Source: Candidatus Latescibacterota bacterium (lineage in GTDB: Bacteria; Latescibacterota; UBA2968; UBA8231). From it: DNA of 64,000 nt. The stretch lies in contig CBDCDC010000002.1 in assembly GCA_965215195.1 (NCBI GenBank), positions 2,688,001 to 2,752,000 of the forward strand, written 5' to 3'. Below, in pieces: positions 3 through 5,914 of the stretch (its first letter is position 1; each line of letters starts with the position of its first letter). The translations under genes were made by a program, and so were the position numbers. The notes under the pieces are model-generated. The model was not told where the DNA came from. It was given only the letters and a program-made list of their open reading frames with translations, and ran no database searches.

Positions 3-971
3 CCGCTGCCGGTCCTCTTCGGCTCCCTGCTGCTCGGCCCTTCGGCCAGTGCCGAGGCAGGGGAAATTCTCGTCTGGCTCTACGGCCTGCTCTTTCGCGG
101 AGCAGCCGCCGGAACCGAAGAGTCGCTGGTGGGGACAATCGTGTGGGAGGTGCGCCTGCCGCGCATTCTCCTCACCTTTCTGGTGGGGGGGGCCTTGGCC
201 GCGGCCGGCAATGCCTTGCAGGCCCTGTTTCGCAACCCCCTCGTGGCCCCCTACATCCTCGGGCTTTCCTCCGGGGCCGCTTTTGGCGCGGCCATAGCGC
301 TGGTCCTGCCGTTTCTTCCGATCCAGCCGACGGCCTTTGGCTTTGGCCTGCTCGCCGTGGGCTTGGCCTACTTCTTGGCCCGCACCCGCAAGACTGTGTC
401 GGTGGTCTCCCTCATTCTCTCGGGGGTGATCGTCACCGGGATCTTCACCGCTTTGCTGACCATCGTCCAGTTCCTCACCGACCCGTACAAGCTGCAAACT
501 ATCGTCCATTGGACCATGGGCAACCTGCACAATTCGAGCTGGGCCAAGCTGCGCTCGGCAGCTCCGGGGGTGGGCATCGGCGTGGTCTGGCTCTTTCTCT
601 TTCGCTGGCGCATGAACGTGCTGGCCCAAGGCGACGAAGAAGCCCGCGCAGTCGGCCTAAACCCGGAGCGGGAGCGGGTGCTAATTCTCATTCCAGCGAC
701 TTTGGCCGCCTCCGCGGCAATCGCCGTGGCCGGCGTCATCAGCATGATTGGCCTCGCCGTGCCGCACATGGTGCGCATGATGCTGGGGCCGGACAACCGC
801 CACACCCTGCCGGCCTCCTTTGCCTTTGGCGGGGCCTTTCTGCTGCTGGTCGATACCTGCTCGCGCACGCTGGCCTCCTTTGAAATCCCAGTCGGGGTCT
901 TCACCACTCTGCTCGGCGGGCCGTTCTTCATCTTCCTCCTCAAAAAGGCGCGGATCGGATGGGAGACCTAG
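3..971 (+). CDS. FecCD/BtuC-family iron-chelate ABC permease (5' end outside window)
   Basis: Frame is open from the window start; RLPRI, QALFRNPL, GLSSGA and EIPVGVFTTLLGGPFF motifs. Confidence 0.92.
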   Translation, partial: PLPVLFGSLLLGPSASAEAGEILVWLYGLLFRGAAAGTEESLVGTIVWEVRLPRILLTFLVGGALAAAGNALQALFRNPLVAPYILGLSSGAAFGAAIALVLPFLPIQPTAFGFGLLAVGLAYFLARTRKTVSVVSLILSGVIVTGIFTALLTIVQFLTDPYKLQTIVHWTMGNLHNSSWAKLRSAAPGVGIGVVWLFLFRWRMNVLAQGDEEARAVGLNPERERVLILIPATLAASAAIAVAGVISMIGLAVPHMVRMMLGPDNRHTLPASFAFGGAFLLLVDTCSRTLASFEIPVGVFTTLLGGPFFIFLLKKARIGWET

Positions 972-1732
972 TGCCGGCCATCCAAGTTGAGCGGCTCTCC
1001 TTTGCCTACGAAGAGAGGCCGATCCTCAACGATATCTCGCTGGAGATCCCGGCGGGGCAGTTCACCGTTCTCCTCGGCAAAAACGGCAGCGGCAAATCAA
1101 CCCTCATGCGCATTCTCGGCGGTTTCCTCGACTTCGAGCGCGGCAAAGTGCGTATCATGGGGGAGGAGCTCCGCTCCTTCTCGTCTCGGCGGCGGGCCCG
1201 CGTCCTCGGCTACCTGCCCCAGCACCACCGGCCGGTCTTTCCCTTTTCCGTGCAGGACGTGGTTCTGACCGGCCGCGCCAGCTACGTCACCTACGTCCCC
1301 AAGCAGGAGGACGTGGAAATCGGCATCGCCGCGCTGGAGCGGGTCGGCATTATCCACCTGAAGGAGCGCCCGTACACCGAGCTGTCGGGGGGCGAGCAAC
1401 AGCTCGTCCGCATCGCCCGGGTTCTGGCCCAGCAGCCCCGTCTCATCCTCCTCGACGAACCCAGTTCGCACCTCGACTTCCTCAACCAAGCGCACCTGCT
1501 GCGCCTAATCCGCGAGTTGGTCGATGCCGACCTCACCGTCCTCGCCGTCCTGCACGACCCCAACAGCGCCTTCCTCTACGGGGATCACTTCATTTTTCTC
1601 AAGGATGGTGCAGTAGAGCGGCTACCAGCGGCCGAACGGCCGTGGGACCGCGACTTCTTGGAGCGGATCTACGACACTGAGATGGATTCAATCCCCTACG
1701 GCGACCGCGCTCTCGTGGTGCCGAAGGGGTGA
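959..1732 (+). CDS. Iron-chelate ABC transporter ATP-binding protein
   Basis: Walker A GKNGSGKST, LSGGE signature, LLDEP; overlaps the permease stop. Confidence 0.93.
   Translation: MGDLVPAIQVERLSFAYEERPILNDISLEIPAGQFTVLLGKNGSGKSTLMRILGGFLDFERGKVRIMGEELRSFSSRRRARVLGYLPQHHRPVFPFSVQDVVLTGRASYVTYVPKQEDVEIGIAALERVGIIHLKERPYTELSGGEQQLVRIARVLAQQPRLILLDEPSSHLDFLNQAHLLRLIRELVDADLTVLAVLHDPNSAFLYGDHFIFLKDGAVERLPAAERPWDRDFLERIYDTEMDSIPYGDRALVVPKG
1640..1732 (+). repeat. 93-bp direct repeat, copy 1 (3' end of ABC ATPase gene through TGA)
   Basis: Identical by eye to 2669-2761. Confidence 0.95.
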
Positions 1733-1845
1733 GGGAACGTGCCGGAGATGAATGCACGTGAGGCATTGTAAGCCGCTGGCCTCCCTATGGCGGCGATCGA
1801 GAAGCGGGTTACCTCAATAACGACGCCTGCGATTCACAATTTGAC

Positions 1846-2475
1846 TCAGGTACGCCTAAACCCTTCGCAAATGCGAGGAATGCAAATACTGCCCCAGCAC
1901 TTCTGGGTCAACTCAGCAGCCTGTGGCGGAAATGCGCCATGTACGACCTTAATGCCTCTTGTTCCCAGAAATTCCACTACGGGAACGAAATCTCGGTCGG
2001 AGGAAGCCAGAACGGCTACATCGTAGTTGGCGACCCAAGCCAGACTGATCATCTCAGTCGCAATTCTCGTGTCAATGCCTTTTTCTTCAGTGCCGCGCAT
2101 GTCCGCGTTGCATCTCGGGCACTGGGACACGACTTGGTGACAGGCCGGGCAGGTCGGCCCCCTGTGCTTGCGCCTCCTCGGCACCATTGTGACGTGTACA
2201 CCGGGAAATGTATTGAGCGTGCGAGTTGACCAGCGGCGCAACTCCTGATCGCGGTCGCTATATGAACCATAGACATTCATTCCCTGATAATCGACATGTG
2301 CAGTCTCGTCGATAATAAGCAAGGCTTCCCGCGCCAAATGTGGACCCAAGGCACGCCAGTCGATCTTGAAATCGGGCCGAGCTTCCCTTACGGAAAGCTC
2401 AAAATTCCAGAAGTCGACGAACACCCTTACGCGAACGCGATGTTCAGCAACGAGCTCATCACGGCACTCATCCAA
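1846..2475 (-). CDS. NYN/LabA-DUF88 (PIN-fold) nuclease with CxxC...CxxC insertion
   Basis: VFVDFWN, EEKGIDTRIA and ASSDRDFVP acidic motifs; CPAC...CPRC; TTG start 7 nt after GGAG. Confidence 0.88.
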   Translation of the reverse strand: MDECRDELVAEHRVRVRVFVDFWNFELSVREARPDFKIDWRALGPHLAREALLIIDETAHVDYQGMNVYGSYSDRDQELRRWSTRTLNTFPGVHVTMVPRRRKHRGPTCPACHQVVSQCPRCNADMRGTEEKGIDTRIATEMISLAWVANYDVAVLASSDRDFVPVVEFLGTRGIKVVHGAFPPQAAELTQKCWGSICIPRICEGFRRT

Positions 2476-2486
2476 ACTTTAACTCC

Positions 2487-2524
2487 AAAAATAAAAACAG
2501 GGACACCCACAAGAGTGTCCCTGT
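2487..2524 (-). terminator. Intrinsic terminator directly upstream of the NYN RBS
   Basis: Minus strand ACAGGGACAC-TCTTGTGG-GTGTCCCTGT followed by TTTTATTTTT. Confidence 0.8.
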
Positions 2525-2600
2525 CGCATACGCATAGAGTAATAATAATCAAGTGGTCGTTGATCCTGTCTGCCAGGCGACTTCTTGATGGATTTTAATA
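2490..2600 (-). ncRNA. Candidate structured leader or antitoxin RNA upstream of NYN gene
   Basis: Lies between a predicted promoter and a terminator; nested pairing ATCAAG/CTTGAT, GTCG/CGAC, CCTG/CAGG (2548-2589). Confidence 0.5.
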
Positions 2601-2606
2601 CTATTC

Positions 2607-2635
2607 AAAGTAATTGATCATGCCGCTGTTGTCCA
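2607..2635 (-). promoter_or_regulatory. sigma70-like promoter for the NYN leader
   Basis: TGGACA-17 nt-TACTTT on minus strand. Confidence 0.55.
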
Positions 2636-2668
2636 CACTCCATCGGGTAATCTTTGGATTTTTAGCGA

Positions 2669-2761
2669 CCGTGGGACCGCGACTTCTTGGAGCGGATCTA
2701 CGACACTGAGATGGATTCAATCCCCTACGGCGACCGCGCTCTCGTGGTGCCGAAGGGGTGA
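2669..2761 (+). repeat. 93-bp direct repeat, copy 2 (displaced 3' end of ABC ATPase gene)
   Basis: Identical to 1640-1732; ends 7 bp before the convergent gene's stop. Confidence 0.95.
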
Positions 2762-2768
2762 ACGACCA

Positions 2769-3845
2769 TCAGCCGCTGTGCAGGACGAGGTCGCGGGCGT
2801 CGCCGCTCAGCGGCAGCTCAACCCAAGCACCGCCGGCGCGGTGGGAGGCGTGAAAGGCGATAATCGCCTCCAGAGTACGCACGGCCTCCCCTGCGTCGTA
2901 GGAGAAGGGTCCCGCCCCGTCGAGCCAATGGACGATCTCGGCAACGGCCCGGTCCATGCCGCTACCGGGGAAATCGTCGGGCAGGTACTCGCGGTCGTCG
3001 CCGCGCACGATCTCGATGTCGCGGCCACGGCAGATAGCATAGCCTTCGGTGCCGTGGAAGCGGTGGCGCATAGGCGCGGTGCCGTAGTCGGCTGCGTCAA
3101 CCGTGCAGATCAAATCGCCCCTCGGTGCGCCGGCGGCCGCGGGCAAGTCGCGTCCGAGGCGCAGCAGGCCCCAGCCGCCAGGATCGGCGAAGGCTGCGCC
3201 GCGGCAGTCGGATTTCCCCGACAGGTCAAGGGTGCCGGAGACCGCAGTCACCGGCAGGCCAGTAGCCATCTGCACGGCGTCGATCATGTGCGTACCCACG
3301 TTGCCGAGGCGGCCAGAGGTCCACTGGAGCGAGGCCGAGGTCAGGGTGCCGAGGACACCAGCGGCGATGCGGTCGCGCAGCACCCGATAGCCGGGGTGGA
3401 AGCGCAGGTTGTGGTTGATGACGAGCAGGGCACCGGCCTCGTTACAGGCGGACAACATGCCCTCGGCCTCGGTGACCGTCGCCGCAACGGGCTTTTCGCA
3501 GTAGATGGCGCGGACACCAGCTTCCACTGCCGCTTGGGTGATCTCGGCGTGGACGGGCGTGTACGTGGCAACCGAGACGATGTCGAGGGGCGCGGCCGCG
3601 CCGAACATCTCGCGCCAGTCGGCGAACACGGGCACGCCATAGCGCGCGTGGAAACGCGCGCGTCGCCCGTCGTCGCGGCTGCTACCAGCGACTAGATCGA
3701 CCCGGTCGTGGTTGCGCAGTGCCCCTACGTGCGTACCGTCGAGATCCTCAACGCGCTGGCCGAGGGCGTCGCCCGAGACCTGATCCGCACCCCCGATAAA
3801 GCCCAGCCCCACGATTGCTGCACGGTATCTCGTTTCTCCTGTCAT
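2769..3845 (-). CDS. Gfo/Idh/MocA family oxidoreductase
   Basis: IVGLGFIG Rossmann motif, CEKP, GTHMID; AGGAGG RBS before MTGETR. Confidence 0.9.
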   Translation of the reverse strand: MTGETRYRAAIVGLGFIGGADQVSGDALGQRVEDLDGTHVGALRNHDRVDLVAGSSRDDGRRARFHARYGVPVFADWREMFGAAAPLDIVSVATYTPVHAEITQAAVEAGVRAIYCEKPVAATVTEAEGMLSACNEAGALLVINHNLRFHPGYRVLRDRIAAGVLGTLTSASLQWTSGRLGNVGTHMIDAVQMATGLPVTAVSGTLDLSGKSDCRGAAFADPGGWGLLRLGRDLPAAAGAPRGDLICTVDAADYGTAPMRHRFHGTEGYAICRGRDIEIVRGDDREYLPDDFPGSGMDRAVAEIVHWLDGAGPFSYDAGEAVRTLEAIIAFHASHRAGGAWVELPLSGDARDLVLHSG

Positions 3846-3875
3846 AGCATTCCTCCTAGACATTGCCCCAAATCA

Positions 3876-5024
3876 TCAGACCCCGAGGCCCAGTACGCGC
3901 GCACAGGTCCCTCCCATGATCGCAGCCAGATCCTCGGCCGAGAGGAACTCGCAGTAGTCCTCAATCCAGCGGCGAGACTGGCGATAGGTGCAGAAGCGGT
4001 TCTGGAAGGGCATGTCAGTACCCCACAGCAGCCGCTCGGCCCCGATGCGCTCAACCATCTGCTCAAGCGTCGGCCACAACTCGCGGTACGGGTAGTCAAA
4101 CAAGTCGCCAAGGCGCACCGGGAAGCAGACCTCTAAGCTCAGATTCGGATTGGCGAAGGGAGCCCATATCTCGTCGGGCAGCTCGATCCGGCTCGGGGAG
4201 CCGGAGGGATCGTCGTCGAGGAAGAGACGCCACGGGAAGCCATGCGTGAGGCTGCAAAGCGTTTCCGGGTAGCGCTCCATCCAGCGCACCAAGATGTCGA
4301 GCTCAGCTAGGTAGCCGCGACGCCGGCTCTCCACGGTCTGCAACACCGACGCTTCGCCCGGCCCGGTGCCGAGCGTGAAGAACACCGGCACGCCGAGCGC
4401 GGCCACCGCCTCCCAGAACGGACGCAGGTGCTCCCCATCCCACGGATCGGAGCGGTAGTAGTAAGCGTGGGGCGGGTTGAACTTGATGGCGTGCAGGCCG
4501 TGCTTCTCGACAGCAGCGACCGTCTCGGCGATGACGGCATCAAGTTCGCCGGCCAAGCGCCACTCATCGACCGGAGCCATCGAATAGATGCGCTCTGGAT
4601 CGGCAGCCACCGACTCCGCTTGGAAGGCGGGATCGCGGCCCAGCATGGCATCGACGTGCAACAGAACCTTATCGACGCCGGCGTAGTCCATCTCGGCCAG
4701 CAGATTGTGGGGCGTGTATTCCAAGTGGGGCAAGTTGGGCGGATAGAACTGCTTGGTGAAGTCCTCGCCGTCAATCGTCCACACCACCCGTCCCTTGTCG
4801 TGGTCAACGCGGAAGTTGACGTCGGGCAAGTTGTCGAAATCCATGGCCCCACCGGGCGCTGCCAGCACATCCGCAGAGGCCGGTGCGCGGTCGCGGATGC
4901 GCCAAGCGGGCTGGTGGTGAGAGGCCTGACCGCCCTGGACCCAGCGCAGGTGGTCGGCCGCGGTGGGATGCCCGGCAGGAGAGTCAGCCGGGGGGAAGCA
5001 GTAGGCGTGGGAGTCGATAATCAT
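3876..5024 (-). CDS. Amidohydrolase_2 family protein
   Basis: MIIDSHAY start, LLWGTDMP motif. Confidence 0.85.
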   Translation of the reverse strand: MIIDSHAYCFPPADSPAGHPTAADHLRWVQGGQASHHQPAWRIRDRAPASADVLAAPGGAMDFDNLPDVNFRVDHDKGRVVWTIDGEDFTKQFYPPNLPHLEYTPHNLLAEMDYAGVDKVLLHVDAMLGRDPAFQAESVAADPERIYSMAPVDEWRLAGELDAVIAETVAAVEKHGLHAIKFNPPHAYYYRSDPWDGEHLRPFWEAVAALGVPVFFTLGTGPGEASVLQTVESRRRGYLAELDILVRWMERYPETLCSLTHGFPWRLFLDDDPSGSPSRIELPDEIWAPFANPNLSLEVCFPVRLGDLFDYPYRELWPTLEQMVERIGAERLLWGTDMPFQNRFCTYRQSRRWIEDYCEFLSAEDLAAIMGGTCARVLGLGV

Positions 5025-5113
5025 GGCAGTACCTTGGCAGTCGCGGCCGGAGGTCAGGAGAGTTCCCGCGCAAATTCGCAGGTCCAATCGACGACCCGGA
5101 AACCGTAGAAGGA

Positions 5114-5142
5114 AGGGTATATCTCTTAGAGAATGATGTCAA
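5114..5142 (-). promoter_or_regulatory. sigma70-like promoter
   Basis: TTGACA-17 nt-TACCCT on minus strand upstream of the amidohydrolase. Confidence 0.5.
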
Positions 5143-5145
5143 CGA

Positions 5146-5248
5146 GTAGTGGGTCTCTTTGAAAATTACACGGGCGGCGGGGGTGGACGGATCGTGCGGC
5201 ACACTCGGCGTCCGAGGACTAGCGTAAAAATTCAAAGGGACCCACCAC
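5146..5248. mobile_element. Small inverted-repeat element (MITE-like, family 2)
   Basis: GTAGTGGGTCTCTTTGAAAATTAC ... GTAAAAATTCAAAGGGACCCACCAC imperfect IR; a similar end occurs at 21090-21109. Confidence 0.5.
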
Positions 5249-5401
5249 GAATCTTCTACGCCGAATTTAAGTATCGAGCGCAGCTTGACCCACCATTAGA
5301 AACGCCGTTTATTCGGCCCATCTACTGTCGCCTCCAACCTTGCGCAACCACGGCTCCCATCTCCCCAAGACATTCTCTGTGCCGAAATCACCCGTCGAAT
5401 C

Positions 5402-5603
5402 ACGCCTAAGAAAATCAGAGAATTAATTCAGAACTTGAGAAAAGCGGGATTTTACGAAATTTCTGGTGGAGGCAAAGGATCGCATAGAAAATTTGCCCAT
5501 GATCGCTATCGCGGCGTCGTTACACTCAGCGGAAATTTTGGCAATGACGCAAAACCATATAGAACAGCAAGTCCAAAGCGCAGTGAAGGAAGTTAAAAAA
5601 TGA
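5402..5603 (+). pseudogene. hicA: HicA toxin pseudogene
   Basis: Manual translation (ACG)PKKIRELIQNLRKAGFYEISGGGKGSHRKFAH...DAKPY then frameshift EQQVQSAVKEVKK*; KGSH motif; start codon appears mutated. Confidence 0.8.
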
Positions 5604-5764
5604 AAGCCATTGATCGGTACCATAAATGGGTGGAGTGGAGTGAAGAAGACCAAGTATATATCGGCCAATGTCCGGACTTGATTACGGGAATTCACGGCGA
5701 CGATCCGCTGCAGGTTTATGAAACTGTGTGACGTCATAGCAGACGTTATTCACCATTTCGAGTC
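5600..5764 (+). pseudogene. hicB: HicB antitoxin pseudogene
   Basis: MKAIDRYHKWVEWSEEDQVYIGQCPDLITGIHGDDP, frameshift, then runs into the MITE; ATGA overlap with hicA. Confidence 0.75.
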
Positions 5765-5914
5765 TAAGAAGCGGTCTGAAAATTCCGGGTATCGCCCTTG
5801 TATGTAGCAAACAATCGAGGATCGAGGGCGTCTCGCCCTCGAAAAACGCGCCATCCGAGGGCCTCTCAACCGCTGCTCAACGCGGTTCGCCGAGGGTTTG
5901 CAGACCGCTTCTTA
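5765..5914. mobile_element. MITE family 1, copy A
   Basis: Terminal IR TAAGAAGCGGTCTGAAAA / TTTGCAGACCGCTTCTTA; internal hairpin GAGGGCGTCTCGCCCTC. Confidence 0.75.

Follow-up and report, generated by a model that had tools for sequence, protein, structure and literature searches.

Introduction

In the part of Goeders 2016 (PMC5086642) considered here, a type III toxin-antitoxin system is defined by one promoter, a non-coding RNA, a Rho-independent terminator and the gene of an endoribonuclease toxin, and RNA antitoxins of this type are given for only three related toxin families. Bacterial proteins of the NYN family (PF01936) are listed under "function unknown" in the part of the 2017 survey of the PIN superfamily (PMC5499597) that was consulted. 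Here we analyzed a 64,000-nucleotide stretch of a Candidatus Latescibacterota bacterium genome (assembly GCA_965215195.1, contig CBDCDC010000002.1, positions 2,688,001 to 2,752,000), referred to below as the window, in which a promoter, a structured leader RNA, a terminator-like hairpin and the gene of an NYN-domain nuclease follow one another on the minus strand. A preliminary description, made from the letters of this stretch, had read them as a type III toxin-antitoxin-like module. We show that the promoter-RNA-hairpin-NYN cassette is a conserved unit without a protein partner, and we weigh the explanations that may account for it.

Results

The preliminary description had placed on the minus strand a promoter TGGACA-17-TACTTT, a bulged stem-loop, a terminator hairpin with a T-tract ahead of a GGAG ribosome-binding site (RBS), and a TTG-started NYN gene with intact acidic motifs and a CxxC...CxxC insertion; promoter, stem-loop, terminator hairpin, RBS and gene were all confirmed to be present as described. 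The sigma-70-like promoter, read from the sequence at 2607-2635, carries its -35-like hexamer TGGACA at 2635-2630 and, after a 17-nt spacer, its -10-like hexamer TACTTT at 2612-2607; a generic promoter scan skipped it because the first hexamer begins with TGG and not TTG. Hairpin P1 (2548-2589), found by sequence and by folding, has exactly the composition that had been claimed (ATCAAG..GTCG-CCTG-loop-CAGG..CGAC..CTTGAT), with an outer, a middle and an apical helix and an A-rich 3' bulge. Hairpin P2 follows at 2525-2496; 10 to 12 base pairs had been claimed for it, and the terminator scan gave 13, seven of them G-C, with a U-tract running to 2487, so that the segment 2487-2525 has the shape of an intrinsic terminator. 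The GGAG RBS (2483-2486) lies 7 nt ahead of the TTG start codon at 2475, which opens the 209-amino-acid (aa) NYN-domain, PIN-like nuclease gene (1846-2475; list of open reading frames [ORFs] and Pfam). The 118-nt leader folded into two hairpins at -40.1 kcal/mol (z = -4.87), and none of 200 shuffled sequences was as stable. Terminator-like sites in the scanned region numbered two versus 1.4 expected by chance; chance was thus not ruled out from the window alone, and it was the conservation of the whole leader in relatives that settled the observation as real.

Of 1063 candidates from a protein search, 890 were relatives at E ≤ 0.001, and many of these were 60 to 89% identical and about 209 aa long. 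Relatives were encoded in 214 genomic stretches, and the best 80 of these 214, with 54 to 86% identity, were the loci analyzed. They belonged to Dehalococcoidia, Latescibacterota, Binatia, Alpha- and Gammaproteobacteria, Gemmatimonadota and Longimicrobiales, and further to Vicinamibacterales and Holophagales, Spirochaetia, Rhodothermales and Acidimicrobiales. A simple hairpin pattern was found upstream of NYN in 69 of the 80 loci. From a MAFFT alignment of 70 leaders, RNAalifold derived 16 pairs, 10 of which showed compensatory changes, and a covariance model of 99 positions and 23 pairs, designated R1, was built from the MAFFT leader alignment. R1 matched the coding strand directly upstream of NYN in all 80 fetched loci and in the window (81/81; E 2e-27 to 2e-6), where the full model matched at 2488-2603 on the minus strand (50.8 bits, E 4.3e-12). 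Furthermore, R1 matched eight of nine further loci with 45 to 58% protein identity, namely one class-level relative, four viral contigs and three plasmids (from Novacetimonas hansenii, Pararoseomonas and Paracoccus seriniphilus). At the Aeromonas plasmid homolog (33.7% identity), R1 matched on the opposite strand only, and the architecture was not seen there.

In the alignment fitted to R1, 94.4% of cells were paired versus 25 to 46% when the partners were slid, and both-sided changes occurred in 17 of the 23 pairs; none of 500 shuffles reached the observed values. All eight outer and all three middle P1 pairs changed on both sides across the family. Because the fitted alignment leans to the model, the independent MAFFT/RNAalifold count (10/16 pairs) matters. 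The preliminary description had suggested that homologs be collected and their upstream regions searched for covariation, and both counts bear out what it anticipated: the compensatory changes show that the leader RNA, as a predicted structure, is under selection. G-U pairs were frequent in the leader, which points to the transcribed strand. A TTGnnn-16..18-nAnnnT site ended 1 to 4 nt ahead of the R1 start in 70 of 82 rows, and in the window the -10 hexamer lies 3 nt ahead of it; as read from the sequences, the predicted 5' end of the RNA is fixed by a promoter-like site at a constant distance. When window positions 1500-3000 were searched against Rfam 15 at E ≤ 10, only two chance-level matches appeared (16.3 and 15.5 bits), and five representative loci gave nothing on the motif at E ≤ 1. 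The motif is new to Rfam 15, in which it could form an additional family.

The P2 stem, CAGGGAC...GTCCCTG, was kept family-wide. Its GGG/CCC pairs were identical in 80 of 80 scorable rows, five other P2 pairs covaried, and P2 was part of the minimum-energy fold of all 82 members. When the 5' half of P2 was blocked, its 3' half was left mostly unpaired at a mean cost of 16.5 kcal/mol across the 82 sequences; constrained folding of these sequences revealed no consistent alternative partner, that is, no competing helix or antiterminator for P2. In 50 of 82 rows, the 9 nt that follow P2 include at least six T. With its invariant GGG/CCC core, and with a hairpin that is retained even where the U-tract is weak, P2 is unusual for a plain terminator. 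One candidate antiterminator was considered and rejected: in many copies, the P1 apical ACAGGGA complements the 3' half of P2, and the apical helix covaries away while P2 stays constant; the constrained folding, too, counters this idea.

The cassette, the NYN gene and the RNA motif were each single-copy in the 6.13-Mb genome of the window. Five other whole genomes contained eight motif matches, of which six lay by an intact NYN gene, one by an NYN fragment and one was an orphan. Thus, in six whole genomes, including that of the window, the RNA occurs only beside this NYN subfamily or its remnants. One extra R1 match beyond the NYN-linked ones was a second copy at locus L060. There, within 800-5800, the second full leader RNA occupies 1013-1108 and is located 1.9 kb upstream of the copy linked to NYN, and a gene pair, one for an Xre-like helix-turn-helix protein, the other for a RES-domain protein, stands between the two RNA copies; a partial duplicate of the RES gene (463 nt) follows further downstream, and the region as a whole is enclosed by an 81-nt repeat. 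Another rearranged copy was seen at L050, where a repeat of the promoter and of the leader's 5' half lies 1.4 kb 3' of the NYN gene (2843-2918 and 4218-4294); this 77-nt partial repeat is 88% identical and falls below the covariance-model threshold. The NYN gene was present in 2 of 40 relatives of the window genome. Among 151 genomes sampled from the class of genome G043, the RNA motif was found in two, both at already-known loci; with only these two carriers, the sample yielded no statistics on orphan RNAs.

The absence of a protein antitoxin, which had been claimed for the cassette, held on two counts: the ORF list gave no second conserved ORF in the insert, and no recurrent neighbor protein that could be a candidate antitoxin was found among 150 flanking ORFs. 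These ORFs fell into 114 Pfam families, none of which was represented by more than three; the maxima were three ORFs of a DDE transposase family and two each of TIR and PLD. A defense-island context was dropped, as no family was enriched among them.

The 209-aa ORF matched Pfam NYN (PF01936) over profile positions 1-138 of 145 (E 1.1e-13; 52.4 bits versus a cut-off of 24.2), and this was the sole family returned by a Pfam scan at E ≤ 0.01. A zinc-ribbon insert of the CxxC...CxxC type, CPAC...CPRC, occupies residues 109-122. In a 29-sequence alignment, D21, D76, E131, D160, D162, C109, C119 and C122 were invariant, and C112, the fourth cysteine, was kept in at least 90%. The AlphaFold model of the protein had a pLDDT of 87 and a pTM of 0.81, and its top Foldseek neighbors were 2qip (E 1e-7) and the NYN domain of MARF1 (E 7e-5). 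The protein is, by its predicted fold and residues, an NYN nuclease with intact conserved acidic residues, and nuclease activity is predicted. The PADLOC profile HEC-09 matched at E 3.5e-12, over residues 115-197 only (profile positions 87-172 of 203); otherwise, NCBIfam and PADLOC returned a weak match to a generic NYN model and one to TIGR00288 below its threshold. A search of PDB sequences with the family profile gave no match at E ≤ 1.

In the window, the cassette sits between two 96-nt direct repeats, a feature that the preliminary description did not include. The repeats (1637-1732 and 2666-2761, plus strand) are identical at 95 of 96 positions and bracket a 933-bp insert (1733-2665, minus strand) consisting of a tail, the NYN gene, the leader RNA and the promoter. 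Repeat copy 1 forms the functional 3' end of an ABC-transporter ATPase gene (959-1732; Pfam ABC_tran), stop codon included, while copy 2 is an orphaned duplicate of that gene end and abuts the stop codon of a convergent GFO/IDH/MocA oxidoreductase gene (2769-3863, minus strand; Pfam and ORF list). The composition profile gave a GC content of 45 to 59% for the insert versus 63 to 72% for the flanks, and GC was below that of the flanks in most of the other loci as well. In 14 of 24 same-genus genomes, the two flanks, that is, the end of the ABC gene and the convergent oxidoreductase gene, adjoin with one copy of the segment and no insert; this empty site was confirmed by BLAST in 10 of the 14, all those fetched.

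One congener, G002, carries the cassette at the same site within its own longer repeat of 111 nt (97% identity). Its ABC gene is 90% identical to that of the window, versus 94% in G001 and G022, both of which have the empty site. As G002 is not the closest relative and G001 and G022 are empty, either repeated precise loss or lateral transfer must be assumed. The alignment suggests that the repeat in the window arose from a G002-type repeat through the deletion of some 24 nt. Pairwise alignment with G002 also delimited the cassette tail 3' of the NYN stop codon (1733-1845, minus strand). About 78 extra nt (1733-1838) lie between the NYN stop and repeat copy 1, and these are absent both in G002 and in a relative from metatranscriptome contigs.

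Direct repeats flanked NYN in 14 of the 80 loci, and in about nine of the 14 they were 31- to 189-nt repeats of local sequence spaced 0.9 to 2.1 kb apart. No terminal sequence shared by the cassettes was found; their ends differ by locus and lie at variable distances from the promoter. The insert of the window contained no integrase, transposase or recombinase, with NYN as its only sizeable ORF that had a Pfam match. Of the marks of an integrative element, then, flanking target repeats and an empty site are present, and neither an own recombinase nor conserved ends were found. Judged by this comparison of genomes, the unit is horizontally mobile, and it may ride on, or be the remnant of, integrative elements. 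Two further loci have layouts of their own. At L070 (2624-4040), the cassette lies between a tRNA-Pro gene (3964-4040, minus strand) and a 46-nt duplicate of the tRNA 3' end (2624-2669), the classic mark of integration at a tRNA gene, with no integrase in the 1.3 kb between. At L058 (1587-3837), a 189-nt direct repeat that includes a gene 3' end brackets a 2.06-kb insert, which comprises a DUF3800 gene (Pfam E 1.9e-14) and then the leader-NYN cassette.

Outside chromosomes, homologs were found on five plasmids of 6 to 12 kb (29 to 53% identity, the lowest being that of a Cobetia plasmid at 29%), which carry little cargo besides replication genes, and on four IMG/VR contigs (48 to 49% identity); the INPHARED phage set gave no protein match. 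Inactivated copies were also observed. Seven of the 80 copies, well conserved in other respects, had one nonsense or frameshift change each with the leader intact. Nonsense changes were found at L036, L061, L067 and L089, and three of these four stop codons hit conserved residues, namely the invariant tryptophans W23 and W82 and the nearly invariant zinc-ribbon cysteine C112; the frameshifts at L077, L082 and L083 could be assembly errors, as these are long-read metagenome-assembled genomes. The orphan at L103 (1490-1640, minus strand) has kept promoter, RNA (72 bits), RBS and ATG, and its frame ends after seven codons. At G044:C1:516684-516938, the RNA (81 bits) stands by an NYN fragment that covers residues 12-52 and includes a TAG stop.

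Elsewhere in the window, a 53-aa ORF at 5435-5596 on the plus strand matched Pfam HicA_toxin (E 3.7e-6; 27.4 bits, with the cut-off at 27). A 43-aa ORF without a Pfam match comes next (5600-5731). The 53-aa ORF lies in a low-GC stretch of about 5100-5900 and near an 18-nt inverted repeat (5765-5782 and 5897-5914). Together, these features may represent a second small toxin-antitoxin insert.

Discussion

The explanation that we favor, to which we would assign a probability of about 0.45, is that an RNA and a nuclease form a horizontally moving module whose action resembles that of a type III toxin-antitoxin system or of a plasmid-addiction module. A sigma-70-type promoter would start the transcript a few bases ahead of the conserved two-hairpin RNA of about 100 nt, and P2 together with the U-tract that most copies have, the window included, would terminate most transcripts. 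Read-through transcripts would then carry the mRNA of the 209-aa NYN zinc-ribbon nuclease. The RNA would be the dedicated partner of the nuclease; most likely it would limit the amount of nuclease mRNA, and most likely it would also bind NYN and act as its inhibitor or as a decoy substrate, in the manner of an RNA antitoxin, with NYN being harmful when unopposed. Termination in vivo, RNA-protein binding, toxicity and a role in addiction or defense are steps that we infer. Given its sporadic spread, its presence on small plasmids, its low GC content and its inactivated copies, the unit behaves like an accessory, selfish element.

Several observations weigh against this explanation. The RNA is a single copy and not a repeat array, so it is without the stoichiometric logic of ToxI. 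Any accessory gene that a host can do without would also be expected to show pseudogenized copies and a plasmid location. Many copies have a weak U-tract, with four or five T in 27 of 82 rows and three or fewer in 5 of 82 (32/82 in total), and in such copies the RNA is probably just a 5' untranslated region (UTR), which fits cis-autoregulation at least equally well. The covariation count of 17/23 came from the alignment fitted to R1 and is thus biased towards the model. Transcript data added nothing: in four metatranscriptome runs (one study; assembled contigs only), a relative of about 92% identity was found, with two contigs ending at 2586 and 2581, just inside the leader, and another reaching 2628 and the flank; as one contig crosses the promoter and DNA carry-over is possible, these contigs were dropped as evidence on transcription start, termination or an excess of the RNA. 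Finally, HEC-09, the only NYN defense candidate for which a test was found, protected against no phage tried according to the part of the report consulted (bioRxiv 10.1101/2024.01.29.577857).

Only tentatively, and with some reserve, do we extend the favored explanation to a new class of RNA antitoxin that would follow type III logic with unrelated parts. In this extension, an RNA of about 100 nt would both neutralize and throttle an NYN/PIN-like zinc-ribbon RNase. Carried together on a cassette of some 0.9 kb, the two would spread among at least nine higher bacterial taxa, as well as small plasmids and viral contigs, and would serve there in addiction or abortive infection; insertion may leave unusually long target duplications of 30 to 190 nt.

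The main rival is a cis-autoregulatory leader, and the present data fit both it and the type III-like module. Several RNases are known to act on their own transcripts, as exemplified by the rne 5' UTR, the rnc leader, the pnp leader, and Regnase-1 on its own mRNA. By analogy, the NYN RNase would recognize the hairpins of its own 5' UTR and cleave or repress its own mRNA; it would be a non-toxic accessory RNase, and P2 would merely lower expression. The exclusive tie of the motif to one nuclease family, the single-copy RNA, and the kept sequence of the P2 stem, which suggests recognition by a protein, would all be accounted for, and the weak U-tract of 32 of the 82 rows would often leave RNA and mRNA as one molecule. 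However, a strong terminator-like P2, constitutive in folding and with at least six T in 50 of the 82 rows, would separate most leader RNA from the mRNA, and small plasmids, sporadic spread and frequent inactivation by a single change fit a gene that is selfish or costly better than they fit a housekeeping RNase. We consider cis-autoregulation less likely than the favored module, yet as the alternative to be taken most seriously.

A riboswitch or factor-dependent attenuator, in which P1 would sense a small molecule or host factor and control termination at P2, appears improbable. It would suit a covarying structure that directly precedes a terminator hairpin and an RBS, and the lack of an Rfam match would leave room for a new class. 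Nevertheless, P2 is constitutive in folding with no conserved competing helix, which argues against a riboswitch-type switch, and the 82 sequences revealed neither a conserved antiterminator nor a conserved alternative pairing. P1 is a bulged hairpin of simple form in which few unpaired positions are conserved, the sequence of the P2 stem is conserved in a way that a plain expression platform does not need, and the motif precedes only this NYN gene and never metabolic or transport genes (six whole genomes, 89 loci).

We give equally little credence, if not slightly less, to the possibility that the hairpins, as RNA or DNA, serve the mobility or targeting of a selfish nuclease gene, whether as cofactor, guide or recombination site. 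Such a role would explain the long target duplications around the cassette; the direct repeats at 14 of 80 loci, the 96-nt duplication in the window with empty sites in its relatives, and an insert without integrase or transposase are in line with it. Conversely, the ends of the cassette are variable in their distance from the promoter and share no common terminal sequence, and one duplication comprises the 3' 46 nt of a tRNA-Pro gene, as is usual for islands moved by an integrase. At about 6 to 10 nt, the variable unpaired parts of the RNA are too short for a guide, and the G-U pairs and the fixed promoter distance indicate an RNA rather than a DNA site. Coincidence, that is, an unrelated small RNA gene or a leftover terminator upstream of NYN, could appeal to the chance-level number of terminator-like sites in the window and is effectively refuted, because strand and distance of the RNA are the same in 81/81 plus 8/9 loci from many higher taxa and the RNA occurs elsewhere only by NYN remnants or as a second copy inside the rearranged NYN locus L060.

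These results leave the interpretation in the preliminary description plausible and partly supported. The order of promoter, structured RNA, terminator hairpin and NYN gene that it had read from one locus proved to be a conserved unit (81/81 plus 8/9 loci). Among the findings that it had named as speaking against it were a lack of conserved structure upstream of homologs and a terminator left over from a donor locus. R1 was found at all 81 and at 8 of the 9 further loci, which excludes the former, and the whole leader is conserved across relatives, which excludes the latter. As to its type III-like character, the gene order agrees, whereas the tandem-repeat RNA and a ToxN-like toxin do not. 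It had also known of no described NYN toxin family with such a layout, and our literature search found none. No report pairing NYN with type III toxin-antitoxin systems was found, although a motif named only in supplementary lists could escape such a search, against which the Rfam searches argue; nor was the layout described in the literature on "NYN domain" with "antitoxin" or "riboswitch", as judged by titles and abstract starts among the matches listed.

An NYN subfamily with a strictly co-inherited, covarying RNA and no protein partner offers an RNA-protein pair that is concrete and can be tested. Should the RNA inhibit the nuclease, antitoxins made of RNA would reach into the PIN-like superfamily, and such modules could be sought more widely; NYN (PF01936) proteins are abundant in bacteria. 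Bench tests are made practical by copies that reside on small plasmids of cultured bacteria, such as the 6.3-kb pKHC110_1 of Novacetimonas hansenii.

Among the described proteins, HEC-09, a PADLOC candidate embedded in Hma systems, shares the NYN nuclease domain with the cassette protein but has another N-terminal domain, the match being confined to residues 115-197. LabA-like NYN proteins (PF01936, COG1432), such as Vibrio VPA0982 (2qip) and MARF1 (5yaa, 6fdl), have the same fold and acidic active-site residues, whereas the cassette subfamily has the CxxC...CxxC insert, is mobile as a stand-alone unit, and always comes with its own RNA. The autoregulatory leaders of RNases resemble the cassette leader in having conserved, nuclease-specific hairpins in the nuclease's own transcript; in contrast to them, the cassette leader usually ends in a terminator and can be a separate small RNA, and its gene is accessory and mobile rather than core.

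The closest likeness in layout is to ToxIN, CptIN, TenpIN and AbiQ, as far as the consulted part of their literature describes them. The cassette shares with them the order of a promoter, predicted here from sequence, RNA, terminator and predicted endoribonuclease without a protein antitoxin, a location on both chromosomes and small plasmids, and horizontal mobility; the terminator between RNA and gene, a type III feature, is present by sequence in the window (2525-2487). It differs in that its RNA is one two-hairpin unit, whereas type III RNAs are, in the same part of that literature, tandem arrays of short repeats. Tandem Repeats Finder (minimum score 30) returned no rows for 1600-2800, and a repeat search gave no repeat internal to the leader. 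It differs further in that its protein is NYN/PIN-like with a zinc ribbon and not a ToxN/AbiQ, CptN or TenpN protein. Formal membership in ToxIN, CptIN or TenpIN was therefore rejected, and with no tandem repeats and a non-ToxN fold, the cassette is best described as a module that would work like a type III system while being built from a different RNA and a different nuclease.

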